Positions 7,479 through 31,443 of a stretch of 32,000 nt of DNA are shown in pieces. A program made the translations under genes and the position numbers. The stretch covers positions 1 through 32,000 of the forward strand of contig CAYHYM010000001.1 in NCBI GenBank assembly GCA_964360965.1, given 5' to 3'. Positions within the stretch are counted from its first letter, which is position 1; each line of letters opens with the position of its first letter. The stretch is from an uncultured Gammaproteobacteria bacterium (lineage in GTDB: Bacteria; Patescibacteriota; Microgenomatia; Daviesbacterales; UBA10151). The notes beneath the pieces are model-generated. The model saw nothing but the letters and a program-made list of their open reading frames with translations, had not been told where the DNA came from and did not search any database.

Positions 7479-9617
7479 ATGGAACTTAATACCCCTTTAT
7501 ACACTCTGACAGGGATAGGCTCTTCTCTAACACTCAAACTAAGCAGATTAAACCTTAATACAGTTTGGGATCTCATTTATCATTTCCCCTTCAGATATGA
7601 TGATTTTCCCAATACCTCTTCTATAAAAGATGCACAGATTGGACAAATTGTAACTTTGCAGGGGGAGATTTGGTCAATTGCAAATATTTATACTAAGTTC
7701 GGCAAAGTGTTAACCCAGGCCATTTTTAATGACGGGACTTCTCCCTTAACCCTGACCTGGTTTAATCAGCCCTATCTTACCAAACAACTCAAAACAGGGG
7801 ACAGGTTACAAATTTCCGGAAAATTAACAAAATACAAAAACAAACTAACTATTATTGTCCCAAAATGGGAAAGAACCCTGGGCTATGGGTTATCCACATC
7901 GGATGTGTCAAGTTCTATCCATACTGGGAGGCTGGTGCCGGTTTATCCAGAAACAGCAGGTTTAACCTCTAAGTGGATTAGAACTAAAATAGCTACCCTT
8001 TTACCACAAGTGTTAAATAAAATAGAAGATTCACTGCCTTCATCAATCAGAGATGGCATGTTACCTTTACATGAGGCCATCTCGTACATCCATTTGCCAG
8101 ATTCCATGAATGATGTGGAAAAAGCCAGGGAAAGGTTGGGTTTTGATGAGCTGTTTTATGTTTCTTTGGCAACTCAAAAAGCCAGGCTGGAGTGGAACAG
8201 GAAGCCTTTGGTTAAACCACTGACAGTCGCCGAAAATGATTTAAAGTCTTTTATAAAATCTTTGCCATTTAATCTGACCGGCGCACAAGAAAAAGTTTTA
8301 AAAGAAATAGTTTCTGATCTAAAGAACATCCAACCCATGAATAGACTGTTGCAAGGTGAGGTCGGATCTGGAAAAACAGTGGTGACAACCGTTGCTGCTT
8401 ATCTAGTTTACAAAAATAATCTTAGAACACTTTTAATGGCCCCCACGGAGATTTTGGCTTTCCAACATTTTGAGACTGTGTCTGGACTGTTGGAACCTTT
8501 TGGCATCAGGGTTGGCATTTATACTGGCAGTAGAAAATTTACCAAACACTCACCTGGAAGGTGGCCCGCTTCGCCCGCCTTTGGCCCAGCCTCGACTCGT
8601 CTCGGCGAGGCGGGCGTGGCTTCGCAGCGAGGCGAGCCGAATGGACTCCTGGAAAGTGAATCAGATGTTATCATCGGCACTCATGCCCTTCTTTCCCAAA
8701 AACTTAATACCCAAGATGTTGGGCTTATCATAATAGATGAACAACAACGTTTTGGGGTGGAGCAAAGGACAATCCTTCGAAACCGCGCCAAACTACCTCA
8801 TTTTTTGACTATGACCGCAACACCCATCCCCAGAACCGTAGCCCTAACTTTATATGGTGACTTGGATTTATCAATCATTGATGAGATGCCAAAAGGCAGA
8901 CCTCAAATAAAAACTTTTCTGGTCCCGGAGAAAAAAAGAGCGGACGGATACAAATTTATAGAAAAAAAGATCAAGATGGGTGATCAGGCCTACATCATCA
9001 CTCCTTTGATTGAGCCGTCGGAGACACTGACCACAGTAAAGGCAGCCAAGATAGAATTCGTGCGGCTAAAAAAGATTTTTCCTACTCTTACTTTGGGCCT
9101 TTTACATGGCAGGATGAAAGCCAAAGATAAAGAACAAGTTCTTAAAGACTTCCGATCTGGCCACATCCACATTTTAGTGTCCACCTCAGTTGTTGAGGTT
9201 GGCATGGATATCCCCAATGCCACCATTATGGTAATTGAAGGCGCTGAAAGATTTGGTTTGGCTCAACTTCATCAATTAAGAGGCAGAATTGGTAGAGGCA
9301 CAAAAACCTCTTACTGCCTAGTCTACACATCCGGGGTGTCAACTGATGATAGGCGGCGGCTAAAATATTTGGAAACCACCTTTGATGGGCTGAAATTGGC
9401 TGAGCTAGACTTAAAAATTCGCGGCTCCGGGGAAATTTTTGGCACCAGACAATCCGGCAGGTTTGAATTCAAAATTGCCTCTTTATCCAATTTGATAATG
9501 GTAGAAAAAACCAAAGCTGCTGCCCAAAAGTTACTTTCAGACAATCCTTCTCTTGACAAACATCCGCAAATAAAGAGAAAATTGGAACAACTTGCGTCAA
9601 ATGTGATGCCGGATTGA
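7479..9617 (+). CDS. recG: ATP-dependent DNA helicase RecG, carrying a GC-rich in-frame insertion
   Basis: N-terminal wedge/OB region, Walker A GEVGSGKT, PTEILAFQH, IIDEQQRFG, MTATPIPRT and QLHQLRGRIGRG. Length is 712 aa. Confidence 0.9.
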   Translation: MELNTPLYTLTGIGSSLTLKLSRLNLNTVWDLIYHFPFRYDDFPNTSSIKDAQIGQIVTLQGEIWSIANIYTKFGKVLTQAIFNDGTSPLTLTWFNQPYLTKQLKTGDRLQISGKLTKYKNKLTIIVPKWERTLGYGLSTSDVSSSIHTGRLVPVYPETAGLTSKWIRTKIATLLPQVLNKIEDSLPSSIRDGMLPLHEAISYIHLPDSMNDVEKARERLGFDELFYVSLATQKARLEWNRKPLVKPLTVAENDLKSFIKSLPFNLTGAQEKVLKEIVSDLKNIQPMNRLLQGEVGSGKTVVTTVAAYLVYKNNLRTLLMAPTEILAFQHFETVSGLLEPFGIRVGIYTGSRKFTKHSPGRWPASPAFGPASTRLGEAGVASQRGEPNGLLESESDVIIGTHALLSQKLNTQDVGLIIIDEQQRFGVEQRTILRNRAKLPHFLTMTATPIPRTVALTLYGDLDLSIIDEMPKGRPQIKTFLVPEKKRADGYKFIEKKIKMGDQAYIITPLIEPSETLTTVKAAKIEFVRLKKIFPTLTLGLLHGRMKAKDKEQVLKDFRSGHIHILVSTSVVEVGMDIPNATIMVIEGAERFGLAQLHQLRGRIGRGTKTSYCLVYTSGVSTDDRRRLKYLETTFDGLKLAELDLKIRGSGEIFGTRQSGRFEFKIASLSNLIMVEKTKAAAQKLLSDNPSLDKHPQIKRKLEQLASNVMPD
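8555..8650 (+). repeat. GC-rich palindromic element (family 1) inserted in frame in recG
   Basis: 60 of the 80 nt at 8561-8640 are G/C, against an AT-rich background. A 9-bp inverted repeat CGCCCGCCT (8572-8580) / AGGCGGGCG (8608-8616) is present. The ends CCCGCTTCG (8565-8573) and AGCGAGGCGAG (8626-8636) recur at 20194-20220. Confidence 0.75.
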
Positions 9618-9652
9618 CGCTTTGCGTCATCCCGCACTTGACAAAGGAAGCT

Positions 9653-9853
9653 ATGCCTGGAGAACCAAAAAAAAGACATTCAAAGAGTCGAAAGAGAATA
9701 AGAAGGGCTGCCATAAAACTGGTGGCAGCTTCTTTAATCGTCTGTAAAAATTGCGGCCAAAAAAGTCTGCCTCACATGGTTTGTAAAGAATGTGGATTTT
9801 ATGGTGGGAAAGCTGTTATCAAAAAAAAGATATCCGTCACTAAAGTAAAGTAA
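9653..9853 (+). CDS. rpmF: 50S ribosomal protein L32
   Basis: MPGEPKKRHSKSRKRIRRA...CKNCGQKSLPHMVCKECGFYGGK is the L32 N-terminal basic motif plus a Cys4 knuckle. AAGGAAG precedes the ATG at 9653. The TTG at 9614 in the track adds non-homologous residues. Confidence 0.85.
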   Translation: MPGEPKKRHSKSRKRIRRAAIKLVAASLIVCKNCGQKSLPHMVCKECGFYGGKAVIKKKISVTKVK

Positions 9854-19197: not shown

Positions 19198-19682
19198 ATT
19201 TTCCTCAAGATTGTGGTTAATCTGGACTCATGAGGACCGGAAACATCTGTCCAGGTTACCACCACCGTGATTTTCTTTTGATCCACTGCTGTATCTTCAA
19301 TAAAAAACTGTCTTCTGAATCCTGCAGCAATAGTTTCTGAGTTAGCCGCAGTTGCATTTGTTAATACCCCAGATGCGTTAAAAAAGAAGTAGCAGCTACC
19401 TACAGGACAACTGGATTGGGTAGCAGGACAAGTGGGTGGAACGCTGGAACTACAGGCAGTAGAACTGGACCAAATTCCCGTTCCAGTGGTATCCCTATCT
19501 CTTAAACCTCTGACTTTCTCCAATCCCTGTTGTGCCAATTTTGTGGCCTGGGCTTGATTTTGAGAAAAGCTGGCATTTCGCAACGATGCAATAGTGGCAA
19601 AGGTTAAAGCAGCCACTACAATTATAATTACTGCAATCACCACCACCAATTCCATTAAACTCTGACCTTTTTCACTGAACAT
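19194..19682 (-). CDS. Prepilin-type minor pilin
   Basis: MFSEKG|QSLMELVVVIAVIIIVVAAL with Glu+5. Confidence 0.7.
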   Translation of the reverse strand: MFSEKGQSLMELVVVIAVIIIVVAALTFATIASLRNASFSQNQAQATKLAQQGLEKVRGLRDRDTTGTGIWSSSTACSSSVPPTCPATQSSCPVGSCYFFFNASGVLTNATAANSETIAAGFRRQFFIEDTAVDQKKITVVVTWTDVSGPHESRLTTILRKI

Positions 19683-20238
19683 CTATGGCTCCTCCTTGGG
19701 ATATTGTAAAGCATGCTTTAGCATCATTTTTCTGATTCCTTAGTACTATCATCAAGGTTGAAGCGCTGGTAATACAAGAATCCCCACCGGCAAAACCCAC
19801 ATTCCCATTCAGAGCAGTAAAGTTCACAGTTAAAGGAGGGGGGAAGGTTGAACCATCCGGAGGGCAACTTGCATTAGGAACAGGTGAACATTGGATTGAA
19901 ACTACCTCTGCACCTTCAAGAGTTTGTACTTTTTGTTCAGATTCTAGGGTTCCACAGGTTAATGATAGCTTAAGCTTATTCCCATCAAACTTAACTGACC
20001 AAGGAACACCGCCTTGATTATTACATAGGACTCCGGCCGTGGCATTGGCTTGAGCCAGCCTTAAATAGGTCTGAATTTGACCAACAGCTTTGTTTAAAAC
20101 CTGATCCTGGGTAAAATTCTTAAAGTTGGCAAAAACTACAATTCCCACCAGGGCAGTAATGGTAATCACCACCAAAAGTTCAACAAGGGTGAACCCGCTT
20201 CGACCTCGAAGCGAGGCGAGACCACGGACAGTTTGCAT
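19672..20238 (-). CDS. Prepilin-type minor pilin (GspH/FimT-like) whose leader is encoded by a GC-rich element
   Basis: MQTVRGLASLRGRSG|FTLVELLVVITITALVGIVVF. Leader codons coincide with the palindrome at 20196-20213. Confidence 0.75.
   Translation of the reverse strand: MQTVRGLASLRGRSGFTLVELLVVITITALVGIVVFANFKNFTQDQVLNKAVGQIQTYLRLAQANATAGVLCNNQGGVPWSVKFDGNKLKLSLTCGTLESEQKVQTLEGAEVVSIQCSPVPNASCPPDGSTFPPPLTVNFTALNGNVGFAGGDSCITSASTLMIVLRNQKNDAKACFTISQGGAIDVQ
20194..20220 (+). repeat. Family-1 GC-rich element, short copy
   Basis: CCCGCTTCG...AGCGAGGCGAG, the same termini as the recG element. It contains the palindrome CGCTTCGA-CC-TCGAAGCG (20196-20213). Confidence 0.7.
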
Positions 20239-20285
20239 AATTTAAACGTACCATATTTCCTGGGCAACTACCAACTGGATTACCC

Positions 20286-21050
20286 ACACCCGGTGTGTAC
20301 AAGGTAGACACATCGGGGTTATTCTGCAATAAGATGTTTTATTTGATCTAATTTCCTCTGATAATCCATCTGGTCAAATGTAAATTTTTTAAACTGATTC
20401 AATGAACGAAAATAGGCCAATAAGAACTTTTTATCCACAATGATATTCAATTTTTGTTTACCGAGGTATTCTGAAAAAGAGCACCATGGATAATTTTCCA
20501 ACTCTTCAGGCTTTTTAATGATATAAGCAGTTAGGGGATTAAGATGAATGTAACGAGCTACATGAACTAATTGCTCATCAGTCTCAATTCTAACTGCCTT
20601 AAATCTTGATTGGAAAAGTGACCCATTTCTATCATTTTTAGTATTAAAATATTTTGCATAGCTATTTTGAAAGTTTCTTGTAAAAGTGGTTATTCCGCCA
20701 CTATTTATCTCCTTAATTAAAAAATGAATGTGATTTGGCATTAAACAATAAGCTAAAACTTGTATCAATCTTTTGCCAGTTTGCTCTAAACTTTTTAAAA
20801 ACTTCGTCTTTTGGTCTTCAGCTAATCGATTAAAATGAGAGTAACGTAAAGTTAGTTTTTCAAATGTGTAAAAATAGAGTGTTTGAAGTGCTCTCTGATA
20901 ATCCCTTTCATTGATAAAGATTGGCAGACGTGCCACACTCCGGTTGAAAATATGATAGATTTCACCTTCAACAATCGGTACTTTGCGGTAGGGCATTATT
21001 CCAGATTACGCTGTACACCCCGGGGTGTCAAGCTACCACACACCCGGTGT
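20286..21050 (-). mobile_element. REP/RAYT-type unit: a Y1 (HUH) transposase gene bracketed by ~33-nt imperfect inverted repeats
   Basis: The left arm is ACACCCGGTGTGTACAAGGTAGACACATCGGGG (20286-20318). The reverse complement of the right arm (21018-21050) is ACACCGGGTGTGTGGTAGCTTGACACCCCGGGG. They match at 25 of 33 positions by hand alignment. Each arm contains sub-palindromes (ACACCCCGGGGTGT at 21015-21028). Confidence 0.7.
20319..20996 (-). CDS. REP-associated tyrosine transposase (RAYT, IS200/IS605-like Y1 HUH family)
   Basis: HUH motif in CLMPNHIHFLIKE and catalytic Tyr context ARYIHLNPL. YHIFNRSV is a typical RAYT N-terminus. The 225-aa ORF is intact. Confidence 0.8.
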   Translation of the reverse strand: MPYRKVPIVEGEIYHIFNRSVARLPIFINERDYQRALQTLYFYTFEKLTLRYSHFNRLAEDQKTKFLKSLEQTGKRLIQVLAYCLMPNHIHFLIKEINSGGITTFTRNFQNSYAKYFNTKNDRNGSLFQSRFKAVRIETDEQLVHVARYIHLNPLTAYIIKKPEELENYPWCSFSEYLGKQKLNIIVDKKFLLAYFRSLNQFKKFTFDQMDYQRKLDQIKHLIAE

Positions 21051-21056
21051 AGATAT

Positions 21057-21557
21057 CTACGGTCTGGTAAGCCCGTAGTTGAGGCGATTATCAGGGGGTG
21101 AGCTGCAGACTGGATCACTGACCTGACCGGCCCCTTTATTTTCTAATCTGGTGTACAAACAATAACAGATACAACCGGCAGGGTTAACTGCACTGCAGCT
21201 GCCACCTGGTTTACAATCTAATGTGCCAAAAGCCACGTAAGTATAATCCGGCTGGGGAACAGAATCATTAGGCACCCTGGTTAAATAGACAAACTTTTTA
21301 CCGGCTGCATTAGTATAAGACAACTCACTGTCTGGTATAACACTAAAAGGGTAAAACTTTTGGTCAGCATGGTATTGTTGCAAACCGCTTTGGATGAATT
21401 TTAAATCTGACAGTCTTTTGCTATCTCTGGAGGCCTTATAAACTGCCTGATAAGTGGAAAAACCAAGCGCAGTTAAAATGGCAATAATTGAGATGGCAAT
21501 CAACAGTTCCACCAAGGTGAAACCTTTTTTAGAATTATCTATCCGGGGATGCTTCAT
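21057..21557 (-). CDS. Type IV pilin paralog
   Basis: MKHPRIDNSKKG|FTLVELLIAISIIAILTALGF, with C-terminal Cys residues. The ATG at 21557 is preferred over 21593, which extends into the upstream gene. Confidence 0.75.
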   Translation of the reverse strand: MKHPRIDNSKKGFTLVELLIAISIIAILTALGFSTYQAVYKASRDSKRLSDLKFIQSGLQQYHADQKFYPFSVIPDSELSYTNAAGKKFVYLTRVPNDSVPQPDYTYVAFGTLDCKPGGSCSAVNPAGCICYCLYTRLENKGAGQVSDPVCSSPPDNRLNYGLTRP

Positions 21558-22164
21558 AAATTTGATTTGAATAAGAGCCTCCAAAAGCTGCACACCAAAT
21601 ATCTGAAGCAGTAGACCTTAATGATGAATTGTATTTCCAGTTTTTAAGTCCGCATCTTTCAGAATCATTGGTATTTTCCAGCTGTGCTGTCAGGTCATAA
21701 GTTTGACCATCAGCAGTAACATTTCCATAAGTATAGGAATAATTTCCACCAACCCAAGGACCATTGGCATTATTGATAGGGTCAATTGGTAGCCTGGGAG
21801 TAATACCACCATTGACTAAAGCAGGAATCCAACCCTCTCCTGTAGTACTGTAGACATAACAATTGGATCCGTAAGCACAACTACCAGCAGTGGGATACTT
21901 ACCAGCACCAGCACGATAAGCCTCCAAATAGGTATTGATTTTATTAAGATCAGCTTTTCTTTTAGCATCTCTGGCATTTTTTTGAACACCTGAGTAGGCA
22001 GCTATACCTATCACAGAAAGAATACCAAGAATGGTAATAACAACCAGCAATTCAACCAGGGTGAAACCCTTCGACTCACTATGCTCGCTCAGGGCAAGGC
22101 CACGTTTATCCTGAGCAAACCTGTACTGAGCGGAGTCGAAGTAGTCGAAGGAGGCAGATTTCAT
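21535..22164 (-). CDS. Type IV pilin paralog with an unusually long (41-aa) predicted leader built from family-2 elements
   Basis: ...FDYFDSAQYRFAQDKRGLALSEHSESKG|FTLVELLVVITILGILSVIGIAAYSGVQKNARDAKRK. The true start could be internal and non-ATG. Confidence 0.7.
   Translation of the reverse strand: MKSASFDYFDSAQYRFAQDKRGLALSEHSESKGFTLVELLVVITILGILSVIGIAAYSGVQKNARDAKRKADLNKINTYLEAYRAGAGKYPTAGSCAYGSNCYVYSTTGEGWIPALVNGGITPRLPIDPINNANGPWVGGNYSYTYGNVTADGQTYDLTAQLENTNDSERCGLKNWKYNSSLRSTASDIWCAAFGGSYSNQIYEASPDR
22069..22150. repeat. Inverted pair of family-2 GC-rich motifs
   Basis: The left arm is CTTCGACTC (22069-22077) then CGCTCAG (22086-22092). The right arm is CTGAGCGGAGTCGAAG (22126-22141), whose reverse complement is CTTCGACTCCGCTCAG. 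A duplicated TAGTCGAAGG follows (22142-22151). Confidence 0.7.
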
Positions 22165-25890: not shown

Positions 25891-26944
25891 GGGACGTAAG
25901 TAATTTAGTCAAAAGCTCAGGTCTGATGGCAAATCGCAGGGCCACATCGGCTGAGATTTTACCAGCCTTAACCAAAGAGTTAAGCGATGTTTCCAGATTC
26001 ATCATCCCCAGTTCGGCTGATGTTTGTATTAAATTATCAATCATATGGGTTTTTGCCTCCCTAATCATTGATCTGACCGCAGCATTGGCAAAAAGAATCT
26101 CTTGAGCCAAAATCCTGCCCGGAGTCAAGGTTGGCACCAGCCGCAAGCATAAAATAGCCTCCAAAGTAGATGCCAGCTGCATCCTGATCTGTAGCTGCTG
26201 AGTTTGAGGAAAAACATCAATGATACGATCCACTGATTGGGCGGCAGAATTGGTATGTAAGGTGGCAAAAACCAGATGCCCTGTTTCTGCGATGGTCATG
26301 GCAGAGGAAATGGTTTCCAAATCCCTCATCTCGCCAATTAACACCACATCCGGATCCTCTCGCAGAGCCGCGCGAAGCGCTCCAGCCCAGGACTTGGTAT
26401 CATTGTACATCTCCCGCTGAGAAATTAGAGATTTGCCCTTTGGATAAACATATTCAATGGGGTCCTCAATAGTAATAATGTGGGCAGCCCTATTTTGATT
26501 GATGGAATTTATAAAAGAGGCCAGAGCTGTTGATTTGCCATGGCCTGTTGGGCCGGTGATTAAAATAAAACCCTGGCGCAGCTCCGTCAGTTTTTCCACC
26601 ACCTGAGGAAATCCCAATTCGGAGATGGCCGGAATTTTAAAAGGGATCAGGCGAAAAGATGCTGCCAGGTTTCCTTTTTGACGATAGATGTTAACCCGAA
26701 ATCTGCCTTTTCCTTCAAAATCTATTGAGAAGTCAAGTTCCAGGTTTTGGGAGAAAGTTTGCTTTTGGGTCTCTGACAAAATTGGGGTTAAAAAGCTGAC
26801 CATCTCAGACGGAGCGATTACCTCTTCCCCTGGTATAGGGAAAAGCTCACCATGAACCCTTAAAATAGGAGGAAAACCTACGGAAAGATGCAAATCTGAA
26901 GCTCCCCTGGCAATGGTTGTTTCCATTAGTTGTTGAATAGTCAT
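25883..26944 (-). CDS. pilT: PilT retraction ATPase
   Basis: GASDLHLSVGFPPILRVHGEL, Walker A GPTGHGKST, and GHLVFATLHTNSAAQSVDRIIDVF. Length is 353 aa. Confidence 0.9.
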   Translation of the reverse strand: MTIQQLMETTIARGASDLHLSVGFPPILRVHGELFPIPGEEVIAPSEMVSFLTPILSETQKQTFSQNLELDFSIDFEGKGRFRVNIYRQKGNLAASFRLIPFKIPAISELGFPQVVEKLTELRQGFILITGPTGHGKSTALASFINSINQNRAAHIITIEDPIEYVYPKGKSLISQREMYNDTKSWAGALRAALREDPDVVLIGEMRDLETISSAMTIAETGHLVFATLHTNSAAQSVDRIIDVFPQTQQLQIRMQLASTLEAILCLRLVPTLTPGRILAQEILFANAAVRSMIREAKTHMIDNLIQTSAELGMMNLETSLNSLVKAGKISADVALRFAIRPELLTKLLTSHG

Positions 26945-26952
26945 ATTTTTTC

Positions 26953-28665
26953 TTAATCCTGTGCGACTCTTAGCACCTCTTCCATGGTGGTAATTCCTTC
27001 CAAAACCTTTAAATATCCATCCTGTTTCATGGTGACCATGCCATCCTCAACACCCTGGCGTTCAATGTCTTGTGAGGAGGCATGCTCCAAAATTTTCCGG
27101 GAAATTTTTTCTGTTACCAGCAGCACTTCAAAAATACCGATTCTGCCCAGATATCCCATCTGAGCGCAATCTTGACAGCCTTGCGTTTTATAAAGTTTGA
27201 TCTGACCATTTTTGGGCAGCAAGTTTCCCAAAACAGCTTTGATATTTTCCCAAACCTCAGGAGGAGCATCATATAAAACTTTACATTTGGGACAAAGTTT
27301 TCTGACCACTCGTTGCCCCATCACTGCATTTAGGGCTGATGCCAAAAGAAACGGCTCCACCCCCATATCCAACAGCCTGGGAGCTGCGCCTGAAGAGGAA
27401 TTGGTATGAACTGTGGAAAAAACCTGATGGCCGGTCAAGGCTGCCTGGATGGCCAGTTCAGCAGTTTCTGTATCTCTGATCTCACCCACCATCATTATAT
27501 TGGGATCCTGACGCAAAAATGAACGCAGGGCTGAGGCAAAAGTTAAGCCTATTTGGGGATTGACCTGAACCTGATTAACTCCGGGAATTTCATACTCAAC
27601 CGGATCTTCAATGGTTAGGATATTAACTTTGGTGGTGGAAACTTTGGTCAGGATGGAGTAGAGGGTGGTGGTTTTGCCTGAACCTGTTGGTCCGCAGATT
27701 AAGATGATGCCATGAGGGCGAAGCAGCTGGGACCCTAAATTATTCAAAGACGAACCCCTCAGCCCCAGCTCCAGCAGGGTGGGGGCGCCTCCTGATTTAG
27801 GCAGTAGCCTCATCACCACTTTTTCCCCAAAAATGGTCGGCACTGTGGAGATACGTAGGTCAACTTCCTTCCCTTGATAATCAAAAGAGAACCTGCCATC
27901 CTGCGGCAGCCTTTTTTCATCAATTTTTAAAACAGCCAGAATTTTAACCCTGGAGATCAGGGCATCATGTACCCCTTTGGGCAGAATTATTTTTTCCGAC
28001 AGCACACCGTCAATTCTATAGCGGACCCGGGTTTTGTCTTCCTGTGGTTCAATATGGATGTCGGAAGCGCGGGTTTTGATGGCATATTCTAAAAGTTGAT
28101 TGATGATATTGGCCACAGGCGCCTCGCGGATCACCTCAGGCGCCTCTTGAGCTTCCTCTTGCGGTTTAACCGAGGCCACCTCTTTTAGGGCAGATGTCAC
28201 CTCGGTAGTTAAACTTTGGGCATACTGGTTGGAAATGGCCTTTAAAATATCTGAAGTTAAGCCCAAAAAAGGCCTGATCCTCATGCCTGATTTTTTCTCA
28301 ATAAATTGGATCACCTGTATATCTAAAGGGTCTGCCATGGCCACCAGCAGTTGCCCATCTTTTTGGTCAAAAGCGATCAGGATATAGCGGCGGGCCACTG
28401 CCTCAGGGATTAAATTTAGGATATTGGAAGCAATGGCCTGATCTTCCAGTAAGATATAGGGAACATTTAAAATTTGAGCTTTGGCCTGGGTTAGTTTATC
28501 AACAGGCACAAAATTATGTTCAAGAATTATTTTTTCGCTATTTTGGCCGGTGTTGATGCTTTCCAGCTTAATGGAAGAGAGTTGATCAGGAGTCAGAAGC
28601 CCCTGTTTAAATAGGATGTCCTCAATTAAAACATTATTTGATGAAGACTGGGCAGCCTGATCCAT
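26953..28665 (-). CDS. pilB: PilB/GspE-family assembly ATPase
   Basis: N-terminal T2SSE_N-type domain, Walker A GPTGSGKTTT, GHQVFSTVHTN, and the tetracysteine CPKC...CQDC. Confidence 0.9.
   Translation of the reverse strand: MDQAAQSSSNNVLIEDILFKQGLLTPDQLSSIKLESINTGQNSEKIILEHNFVPVDKLTQAKAQILNVPYILLEDQAIASNILNLIPEAVARRYILIAFDQKDGQLLVAMADPLDIQVIQFIEKKSGMRIRPFLGLTSDILKAISNQYAQSLTTEVTSALKEVASVKPQEEAQEAPEVIREAPVANIINQLLEYAIKTRASDIHIEPQEDKTRVRYRIDGVLSEKIILPKGVHDALISRVKILAVLKIDEKRLPQDGRFSFDYQGKEVDLRISTVPTIFGEKVVMRLLPKSGGAPTLLELGLRGSSLNNLGSQLLRPHGIILICGPTGSGKTTTLYSILTKVSTTKVNILTIEDPVEYEIPGVNQVQVNPQIGLTFASALRSFLRQDPNIMMVGEIRDTETAELAIQAALTGHQVFSTVHTNSSSGAAPRLLDMGVEPFLLASALNAVMGQRVVRKLCPKCKVLYDAPPEVWENIKAVLGNLLPKNGQIKLYKTQGCQDCAQMGYLGRIGIFEVLLVTEKISRKILEHASSQDIERQGVEDGMVTMKQDGYLKVLEGITTMEEVLRVAQD

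Positions 28666-29457: not shown

Positions 29458-31443
<1,986 letters not shown>

Follow-up and report, generated by a model that had tools for sequence, protein, structure and literature searches.

A GC-rich insert in recG of a Daviesbacteria genome is probably a decayed copy of a modular, hairpin-forming repeat

We examined a 32,000-nucleotide (nt) stretch of DNA (contig CAYHYM010000001.1, positions 1 to 32,000 of the forward strand; hereafter the window) that carries a GC-rich insert within recG, the gene for the RecG helicase. The host gene (7479..9617, plus strand) is an intact single open frame of 712 amino acids (aa); that the frame is preserved had been stated in an earlier note made from the sequence alone. 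Its product displays the wedge, DEAD, Helicase_C and RecG_dom3_C domains, scores 777.7 bits against the NCBIfam RecG equivalog model (cut-off 718), and has its closest matches (60-74% identity) in proteins whose source names are Candidatus Daviesbacteria or Patescibacteria. The insert lies between GIYTGSRK and VIIGTHALL, i.e. between helicase motifs Ia and II, which agrees with the position given before. While overall G+C in the window is 41.7%, we recounted 60 G+C among the 80 positions of 8561-8640 (75%, again the earlier figure), which makes this segment the top G+C spike of the window. The other G+C-rich spots (140-201, 26332-26401, 27745-27819 and 28118-28177) appear to be ordinary coding sequence with no evident palindrome. 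An identical recG, insert included, was found on two independently assembled contigs (L001 and L002) from Hainich groundwater well H51, and the insert is therefore no assembly artefact.

The extent of the insert was measured as a spacing, counted in residues from G[SAK] to [VI][VI]GTHA. This spacing is 45 aa in the window RecG, 19 aa in the RecG proteins of both E. coli (9wm0) and T. maritima (1gm5), and 8 aa in insert-free Daviesbacteria. The loop had been put at roughly 30 aa longer than in E. coli; it is indeed longer, but exceeds that of E. coli by 26 aa and that of the nearest relatives by 37 aa. Among 120 aligned RecG orthologs of Daviesbacteria, 66 (55%) had a minimal 23-residue segment with no insert, and 54 (~45%) carried an insert of 1-52 aa at the same codon position, belonging to several unrelated sequence classes. 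Relatives encoding the same loop in ordinary AT-rich codons and without a palindrome were not what we found: 66 had no loop, and the rest carried other hairpin inserts.

Homology to two further contigs, L083 and L151, defines a full composite palindromic element of ~121 nt (~8538..8658, plus strand, as are all its parts), running from TTTACC through GGAArGTG and encoding FTKHSPGRWPASPAFGPASTRLGEAGVASQRGEPNGLLES; the bounds of 8555-8650 proposed earlier have to be widened to match. L083 derives from another Daviesbacterium (69% RecG identity) and carries the homologous insert at the same recG codon. L151 is an unrelated metagenome contig in which the same composite is intergenic, flanked by a prs-like open reading frame (ORF) and a 144-aa ORF, and no frame is open through the element there. 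Its neighbours also include recR-like and dnaX-like ORFs (the prs-, recR- and dnaX-like names are our reading of the translations). The homology shared by the window, L083 and L151 extends from TTTACCAGnCATTCACCT to GAGCCGAATGGACTCnTnnnAGGTG, and since it begins at TTTACCAGnCATTCACCT, the codons for FT(K/R)HSPGR (FTKHSPGR in the window) are themselves derived from the element. The recG-locus composite and the intergenic composite of L151 have 25 identical bases of GCAGCGAGGCGAGCCGAATGGACTC in common.

The composite is modular, with the order L-arm (CACCTGGAAGG), loop, inverted R-arm, core hairpin (CCCGCTTyG…AGCGAGGCGAG), CCGAATGGACT and a third copy of the arm. Its outer unit consists of arm, loop, inverted arm, CCGAATGGACT and arm; the GC-rich core hairpin is nested between GGTGG and CCGAATGGACT, and more GC-rich blocks are nested within the core. 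In the window we could assign the outer L-arm CACCTGGAAGGTG (8551..8563), the left half of the inner core hairpin CCCGCTTCG (8565..8573), a nested GC-rich block of 51 nt (8574..8624) with the direct repeat GCTTCG on either side (8568-8573 / 8619-8624), the right half of the core hairpin AGCGAGGCGAG (8626..8636), and the conserved spacer CCGAATGGACT together with the third arm copy CCTGGAAAGTG (8637..8658). The nested block is largest in the window, measures 24 nt in L151, and is missing from L083. The 9-bp perfect inverted repeat that had first drawn attention to the region (8572-8580 / 8608-8616) is 9/9 complementary and lies inside this nested block; a further inverted repeat (8564-8575 / 8604-8615) is complementary at 11/12 positions. 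Two outer units, in L095 and at L066:1801, lack the core, CACCTCGGAGGTGG being directly followed by CCAAATGGACTCCTCCGAGGTGG, and thus mark the point at which the core is nested in the window, L083 and L151.

Compared with L083 and L151, the window copy lacks 24 nt that include the R-arm, the partner of its outer L-arm, and the two arms left behind form a direct repeat (8553-8563 / 8648-8658). As DNA it folds no better than dinucleotide-shuffled sequence (z = 0.03 on the plus strand and -0.83 on the minus strand), whereas the intact copies of L083 and L151 fold at z = -3.3 (0/200 shuffles equal). The element had been called palindromic, a term that fits the window copy only weakly. Both the extreme G+C and the poor fold of this copy result from the loss of the R-arm and the presence of the 51-nt nested block: the recG copy in the window is degraded.

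Some of these features invite the explanation that the palindrome is of local origin, a quasi-palindrome having expanded through replication slippage and template switching with no transposition. De novo formation of hairpins by template switching is documented (PMC10710096), the nested block is bracketed by a 6-nt direct repeat (GCTTCG), the arms of related inserts are tandem 7-mers, and the difference between the L083 and L151 arms resembles a small inversion copied to both arms. Right after the recG element of L083 (3350-3373) there is also a 12-nt tandem duplication (CAACTCCCGATG x2, encoding ATPD ATPD). Yet growth in place does not predict the same composite, with its 25 identical bases, at an unrelated intergenic locus, nor a core found on contig after contig (see below), and we regard a purely local origin as quite improbable. 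Local template switching may explain internal remodelling of the element, not its dispersal.

A second copy of the core hairpin (GGTGaaCCCGCTTCG-acctcga-AGCGAGGCGAGaCcAcGGAC; 20190..20229, minus strand) is present in frame in the leader of a prepilin gene (MQTVRGLASLRGRSG directly followed by FTLVELL). The two sequences that had been taken as the termini of the recG insert recur exactly here, CCCGCTTCG at 20194-20202 and AGCGAGGCGAG at 20210-20220; the recurrence stands, but these are the halves of the inner core hairpin and not the ends of the element. Taken alone and with mismatches allowed, each motif occurs near chance, and the ordered pair CCCGCTTCG plus AGCGAGGCGAG within 60 nt was found twice in the window and 0 times in 3000 block shuffles. 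The host gene (19672..20238, minus strand; Pfam N_methyl) has a leader of 15 aa, compared with 2-8 aa in relatives. Leader peptides of type IV prepilins are cleaved off on maturation, so the leader is another permissive place. A second prepilin gene (ORF 21535-22164) carries a leader hairpin of a different sequence family (22060..22150, minus strand; …FDYFDSAQYRFAQDKRGLALSEHSESKG directly followed by FTLVELL; z = -2.4), and L053:19614 provides a third example of a prepilin leader with a hairpin. Within gyrB (29464-31443), a candidate insertion forms an in-frame hairpin (31177..31235, plus strand; z = -4.0) in the linker that joins the Toprim domain to the C-terminal domain and has the arm motif CACCTCCGAGGTG at its start. 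The arm motif CACCTSSRAGGTG was found at 2 sites of the window, in recG and in gyrB at 31177, with 0.11 expected.

We scanned metagenome contigs for the core with the pattern CCCGCTTYGN{0,30}AGCGAGGCGAG and found it on at least 119 contigs, including other genomes of the same wells. Together with the pilin leader, the recG of L083 and the intergenic copy of L151, this disposes of the possibility that the element has no further copies. Among the matches listed, the host contigs are mostly of 32-50% G+C, and matches on high-GC contigs are probably due to chance. The gap between the two core halves is sharply clustered in size among these matches (10 nt, n = 50; 7 nt, n = 15; 1 nt, n = 14). Likewise among them, 18/87 low-GC copies are located well inside ORFs of 157-1009 aa (60 codons or more away from either end) with the frame kept; these hosts include two LeuRS-like ORFs with the core at the same site and one GyrB-like ORF, all identified by eye from sequence motifs. 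The LeuRS-like copies (L089:8110 and L112:2807) both follow RFLNR[IA]W, a shared position that could equally be inherited or reflect another recurrent site. The 18 in-frame copies (matches listed) have the same orientation as the host ORF in 10 cases and the opposite one in 8, and use at least 5 reading frames. Such use of both orientations and several frames speaks against selection for a peptide. Paired cores in L161 and L188 were set aside, the L161 copies both being intergenic and the second copy of L188 lying far away.

These data bear on the alternatives that the insert is an ordinary lineage-specific protein loop under peptide selection or an assembly artefact. The length of the site does vary across RecG proteins, 19 aa in E. 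coli and T. maritima and 8 aa in many Daviesbacteria, as an ordinary loop might. However, the same DNA occurs outside any gene in L151, the segment reaches 75% G+C in a genome of 42% G+C, the core is read in more than one frame at other sites, the insert is present in both of two independent assemblies, and a homologous insert was found in another species. We give these alternatives almost no credence.

The core also tends to sit inside other hairpins and to come in certain lengths. Among the matches listed, 26/85 cores cap a larger hairpin made up of the flanking sequence (z ≤ -2), where ~2 were expected. Core lengths of the listed matches, sorted by their remainder on division by three (0:1:2), were distributed 74:1:12 on low-GC contigs and 14:9:11 on high-GC contigs, and 16:0:2 for clearly non-coding copies, i.e. 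those with no covering ORF of 70 aa. This bias towards multiples of three is suggestive and not proven, as the copies within a length class share descent.

Inserts at the recG site itself in 36 Daviesbacteria loci, compared as DNA, are mostly not GC-rich (20-55% G+C). With few exceptions they form long, imperfect hairpins (mononucleotide shuffles, z between -2.4 and -7.1), the arms of which are frequently composed of tandem 7-mers. Inserts with 7-nt tandem units were seen in L022, L047, L004, L029, L013, L014, L017, L007, L056 and L018; examples of the units are (AAGATTA)n, (AGGGGAA)n, (AGAGTCA)n and (ACAGGGA)n, with mismatches spaced regularly, and inserts built of different 7-mers have the leader TTTAC-TAAG in common. 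In a neighbour-joining tree of RecG from which the insert columns were left out, proteins with an insert are scattered among those without one, sister proteins differ in hairpin class, and the window RecG falls among insert-free proteins. The hairpin families of the recG site are found elsewhere in the same genomes too, in intergenic DNA, in other ORFs and in the prepilin leader of L053, and they also occupy the corresponding recG position of a Levyibacteriota genome (L079). When 556 kb of Daviesbacteria DNA were scanned by folding, 80 regions had z ≤ -4, eight-fold above shuffled sequence; 37 of the 80 are read through in frame by long ORFs, several at a second spot in recG.

That second spot, variable and hairpin-prone, comprises residues ~131-150 (window ~7870-7930), between WE[KR] and IHTGR. 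Cases were seen at L031:10382-10470, L006:10382-10468, L005:10401-10484, L024:2225-2305, L047:527-601 and L010:3267-3279, the last of these being a CACCTGGAAGG/CCTTCCAGGTG hairpin. An AlphaFold2 model of the window RecG (58 orthologs; mean predicted local distance difference test score, pLDDT, 74.6) places residues 356-390 in a coil with pLDDT < 50, between strands 345-348 and 397-400 with their confident surroundings, a prediction in keeping with a tolerant surface loop. The other low-confidence stretch of the model, 130-155, coincides with the second hotspot. The model fits the idea that inserts survive where the RecG fold would tolerate them.

Outside recG, two stretches of the dnaX-like ORF of L151 (6381-7883, minus strand), QLTVNNSQLT…KSQMLTVS and ESDSQKVRGSDSPKIRLSDS, resemble additional hairpin repeats that are translated, here within a gene for replication. 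In L066, palindromes of CACCTCCGAGGTG in a promoter-like context (8888-8900 and 9802-9814) bracket a 227-aa ORF (9037-9720), which had no Pfam match.

A gene for a Y1 (HUH) transposase-like protein (20319-20996, minus strand) lies among the pilin genes of the window, and we therefore considered whether the element might be a non-autonomous repeat of the REPIN-RAYT type, moved as single-stranded DNA by this gene. The ORF scores 38.1 bits against Pfam Y1_Tnp (cut-off 23), and its best NCBIfam match is the REP-associated tyrosine transposase (REP_Tyr_transpos, E = 7e-16), although that score, 58.4, falls under the model cut-off of 80. It stands ~90 nt from the pilin-leader core copy, a closeness seen in the window only; homologs (33-60% identity) occur in 13 fetched loci, and enzymes of this class act on DNA hairpins (PMC6006769, PMC3733652). 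The palindromes flanking the gene (20285-20300 and 21015-21050; ACACCgGGTGT and ACACCCCGGGGTGT), however, are unlike the recG element, and the 12 homologs examined each have a short, genome-specific palindrome on both sides. In the 13 loci with homologs the layout is the same, the palindrome being followed upstream by a TTGACA-like box. The GTAG tag is absent beside the core, and 670 kb of core-bearing contigs yielded 1 weak Y1 match only. TTTAC stands just ahead of the recG-type copies and of certain other classes of hairpin, but as a family signature, reminiscent of the TTAC target of IS608, it was rejected because it occurs at background level near 83 cores (0.19 per 120 nt). With differing flank palindromes and no local co-occurrence with cores, a link between the Y1/RAYT-like gene and the recG element is unsupported, and mobilisation of this type is kept as an unlikely, low-confidence rival.

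In-frame palindromic repeats have been described in Rickettsia, some Proteobacteria and Opitutus (PMC10969869, PMC3733652), the classic case being the Rickettsia palindromic elements (RPEs) (PMC10969869). RPEs are dispersed palindromes of ~100-150 bp that often lie in frame in unrelated housekeeping genes and also occur outside genes; their host proteins apparently stay functional, and no dedicated transposase is known for them (PMC10969869, PMC3733652). The resemblance to RPEs proposed in the earlier note is one of behaviour: the recG-core repeat is dispersed, multi-copy (at least 119 contigs), hairpin-forming in its intact relatives L083 and L151, and tolerated in frame in unrelated genes (recG, two prepilin leaders and gyrB in the window). 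It does not extend to membership. RPEs end in CGTC (PMC3733652), and the recG-core family is without this tag, CGTC/GACG being found within 15 nt of 1-4/85 listed cores per side with ~2 expected. The family is moreover GC-rich in an AT-rich genome, has nested modules, uses several frames and both orientations, and resides in a host of a different phylum. Sequence similarity to an RPE consensus is unlikely in view of phylum and base composition. The element shows RPE-like behaviour and belongs to a different and apparently undescribed family.

Other known systems are similar in part. Di Nocera et al. (2013) described intragenic repetitive extragenic palindromes (REPs) of the GTAG and CGTC superfamilies in several phyla, many of them in replication and repair genes (PMC3733652). 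These are short stem-loops, mostly intergenic and in a minority genic, that as a rule encode 20-30 aa, or up to 43-82 aa in clusters, and different REPs occupy about the same recB site in two Xanthomonas species (PMC3733652), a parallel to the Daviesbacteria recG hotspot. In contrast to GTAG REPs, GTAG/CTAC was found in 0-4/85 listed core flanks per side; the host phylum was not covered by that survey (PMC3733652), and neither nesting nor multiple-of-three lengths are described there. The window does resemble REPIN-RAYT systems in combining hairpin repeats with a Y1 transposase-like gene that has short palindromes on either side, but we found no REPtron: the palindromes next to the gene and its 12 homologs are of other sequence than the recG element. 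Expressed mitochondrial genes of Nematomorpha contain coding palindromes, perfect repeats both arms of which encode conserved regions (PMC6649704). They share with our case inverted repeats within protein-coding genes, whereas the recG-type inserts add non-conserved loop residues and are imperfect and dispersed. We found no description of in-frame palindromic repeats in the candidate phyla radiation (CPR)/Patescibacteria in the searchable literature, an absence that is not proof.

Together, our results make it likely that ~8538-8658 is a degraded copy of a modular, hairpin-forming repeat that is dispersed in Daviesbacteria and other low-GC CPR-like genomes and sits as a neutral or selfish passenger in a tolerant RecG loop. 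The element is dispersed, nested and kept in frame, and this copy has decayed. The original observation was confirmed and its interpretation is supported, with boundaries and anatomy corrected. We propose that the element landed in the part of recG encoding the loop between helicase motifs Ia and II, and that it would have persisted as a harmless addition: the frame used is free of stop codons, the length is a multiple of three, and the site is a loop that the protein tolerates. It would now encode ~37 extra residues, which are probably disordered. New copies may arise by a DNA-level, hairpin-dependent step, often into the tip of an existing hairpin; such targeting would account both for the nesting and for the accumulation of inserts at certain sites. 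For recG itself we infer an ordinary passenger, neutral and with no function of its own.

Several points weigh against a neutral, dispersed passenger. For the element we identified neither a transposition event nor a target-site duplication, nor an enzyme that would mobilise it. Compared with a classical MITE, which has terminal inverted repeats and a target-site duplication, it has inverted arms, while no duplication was consistent: the candidates were a possible CC where the core joins and the GCTTCG that flanks the nested block. The composite peptide was not found in other proteins in an exhaustive search of 1.84 billion representatives, the lone match (P0121) being rejected as an unrelated high-GC repeat protein of the helicase-associated-domain type. 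Copies in the source genome were counted within 32 kb only. The neighbour-joining tree is star-like, which leaves the number of independent gains uncertain, and the multiple-of-three bias amounts to a few length classes related by descent, 8 with the favoured residue and 4 others. A compensated change (TGGA to TCCA) distinguishes the arms of L083 from those of L151, and hairpins persist at the recG site despite turnover of their sequence; these two findings could reflect selection for structure and not neutrality.

The last two points lead to the explanation that a DNA or RNA hairpin in recG is itself under selection, e.g. as a processing, pausing or regulatory signal. Hairpins at this codon in ~45% of orthologs, with complete sequence turnover, and the compensated arm change would both follow from it, as might the strand asymmetry of the core mismatches (G.T on one strand, C.A on the other). 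Against this, one arm is gone from the window copy, which folds no better than shuffled sequence, any insert is absent from 55% of orthologs, genic copies show the two orientations in near-equal numbers, and no Rfam family matched (Rfam 15: none across the whole window at the gathering score, and none in 8450-8750 at E ≤ 10). A functional structure at this site is, we judge, very improbable.

A passenger repeat in recG may be one instance of a wider system. We put forward, tentatively and at less than even odds, that CPR bacteria of the Microgenomates type harbour undescribed modular palindromic repeats that insert into each other's hairpin tips, change length in three-base steps (core gaps of 1, 4, 7, 10, 13 and 16 nt) even where non-coding, and recolonise the same permissive housekeeping codons (two recG spots, prepilin leaders, the gyrB linker and leuS-like ORFs). 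If true, the repeats would form a lineage of mobile elements suited to life within genes, from which very small genomes would steadily acquire new surface loops. The multiple-of-three series, should it survive a proper phylogenetic test, would be evidence that living within coding sequence has moulded a repeat family. In annotating CPR proteins, it should be considered that unusual loops, whether GC-rich or of low complexity, and pilin leaders of excessive length may consist of repeat DNA and not be protein features peculiar to a lineage. CPR genomes are among the smallest known, yet they tolerate repeats within core replication and repair genes, and the recurrent sites and nesting described here are a tangible starting point for asking how such repeats spread and how new loops enter proteins.

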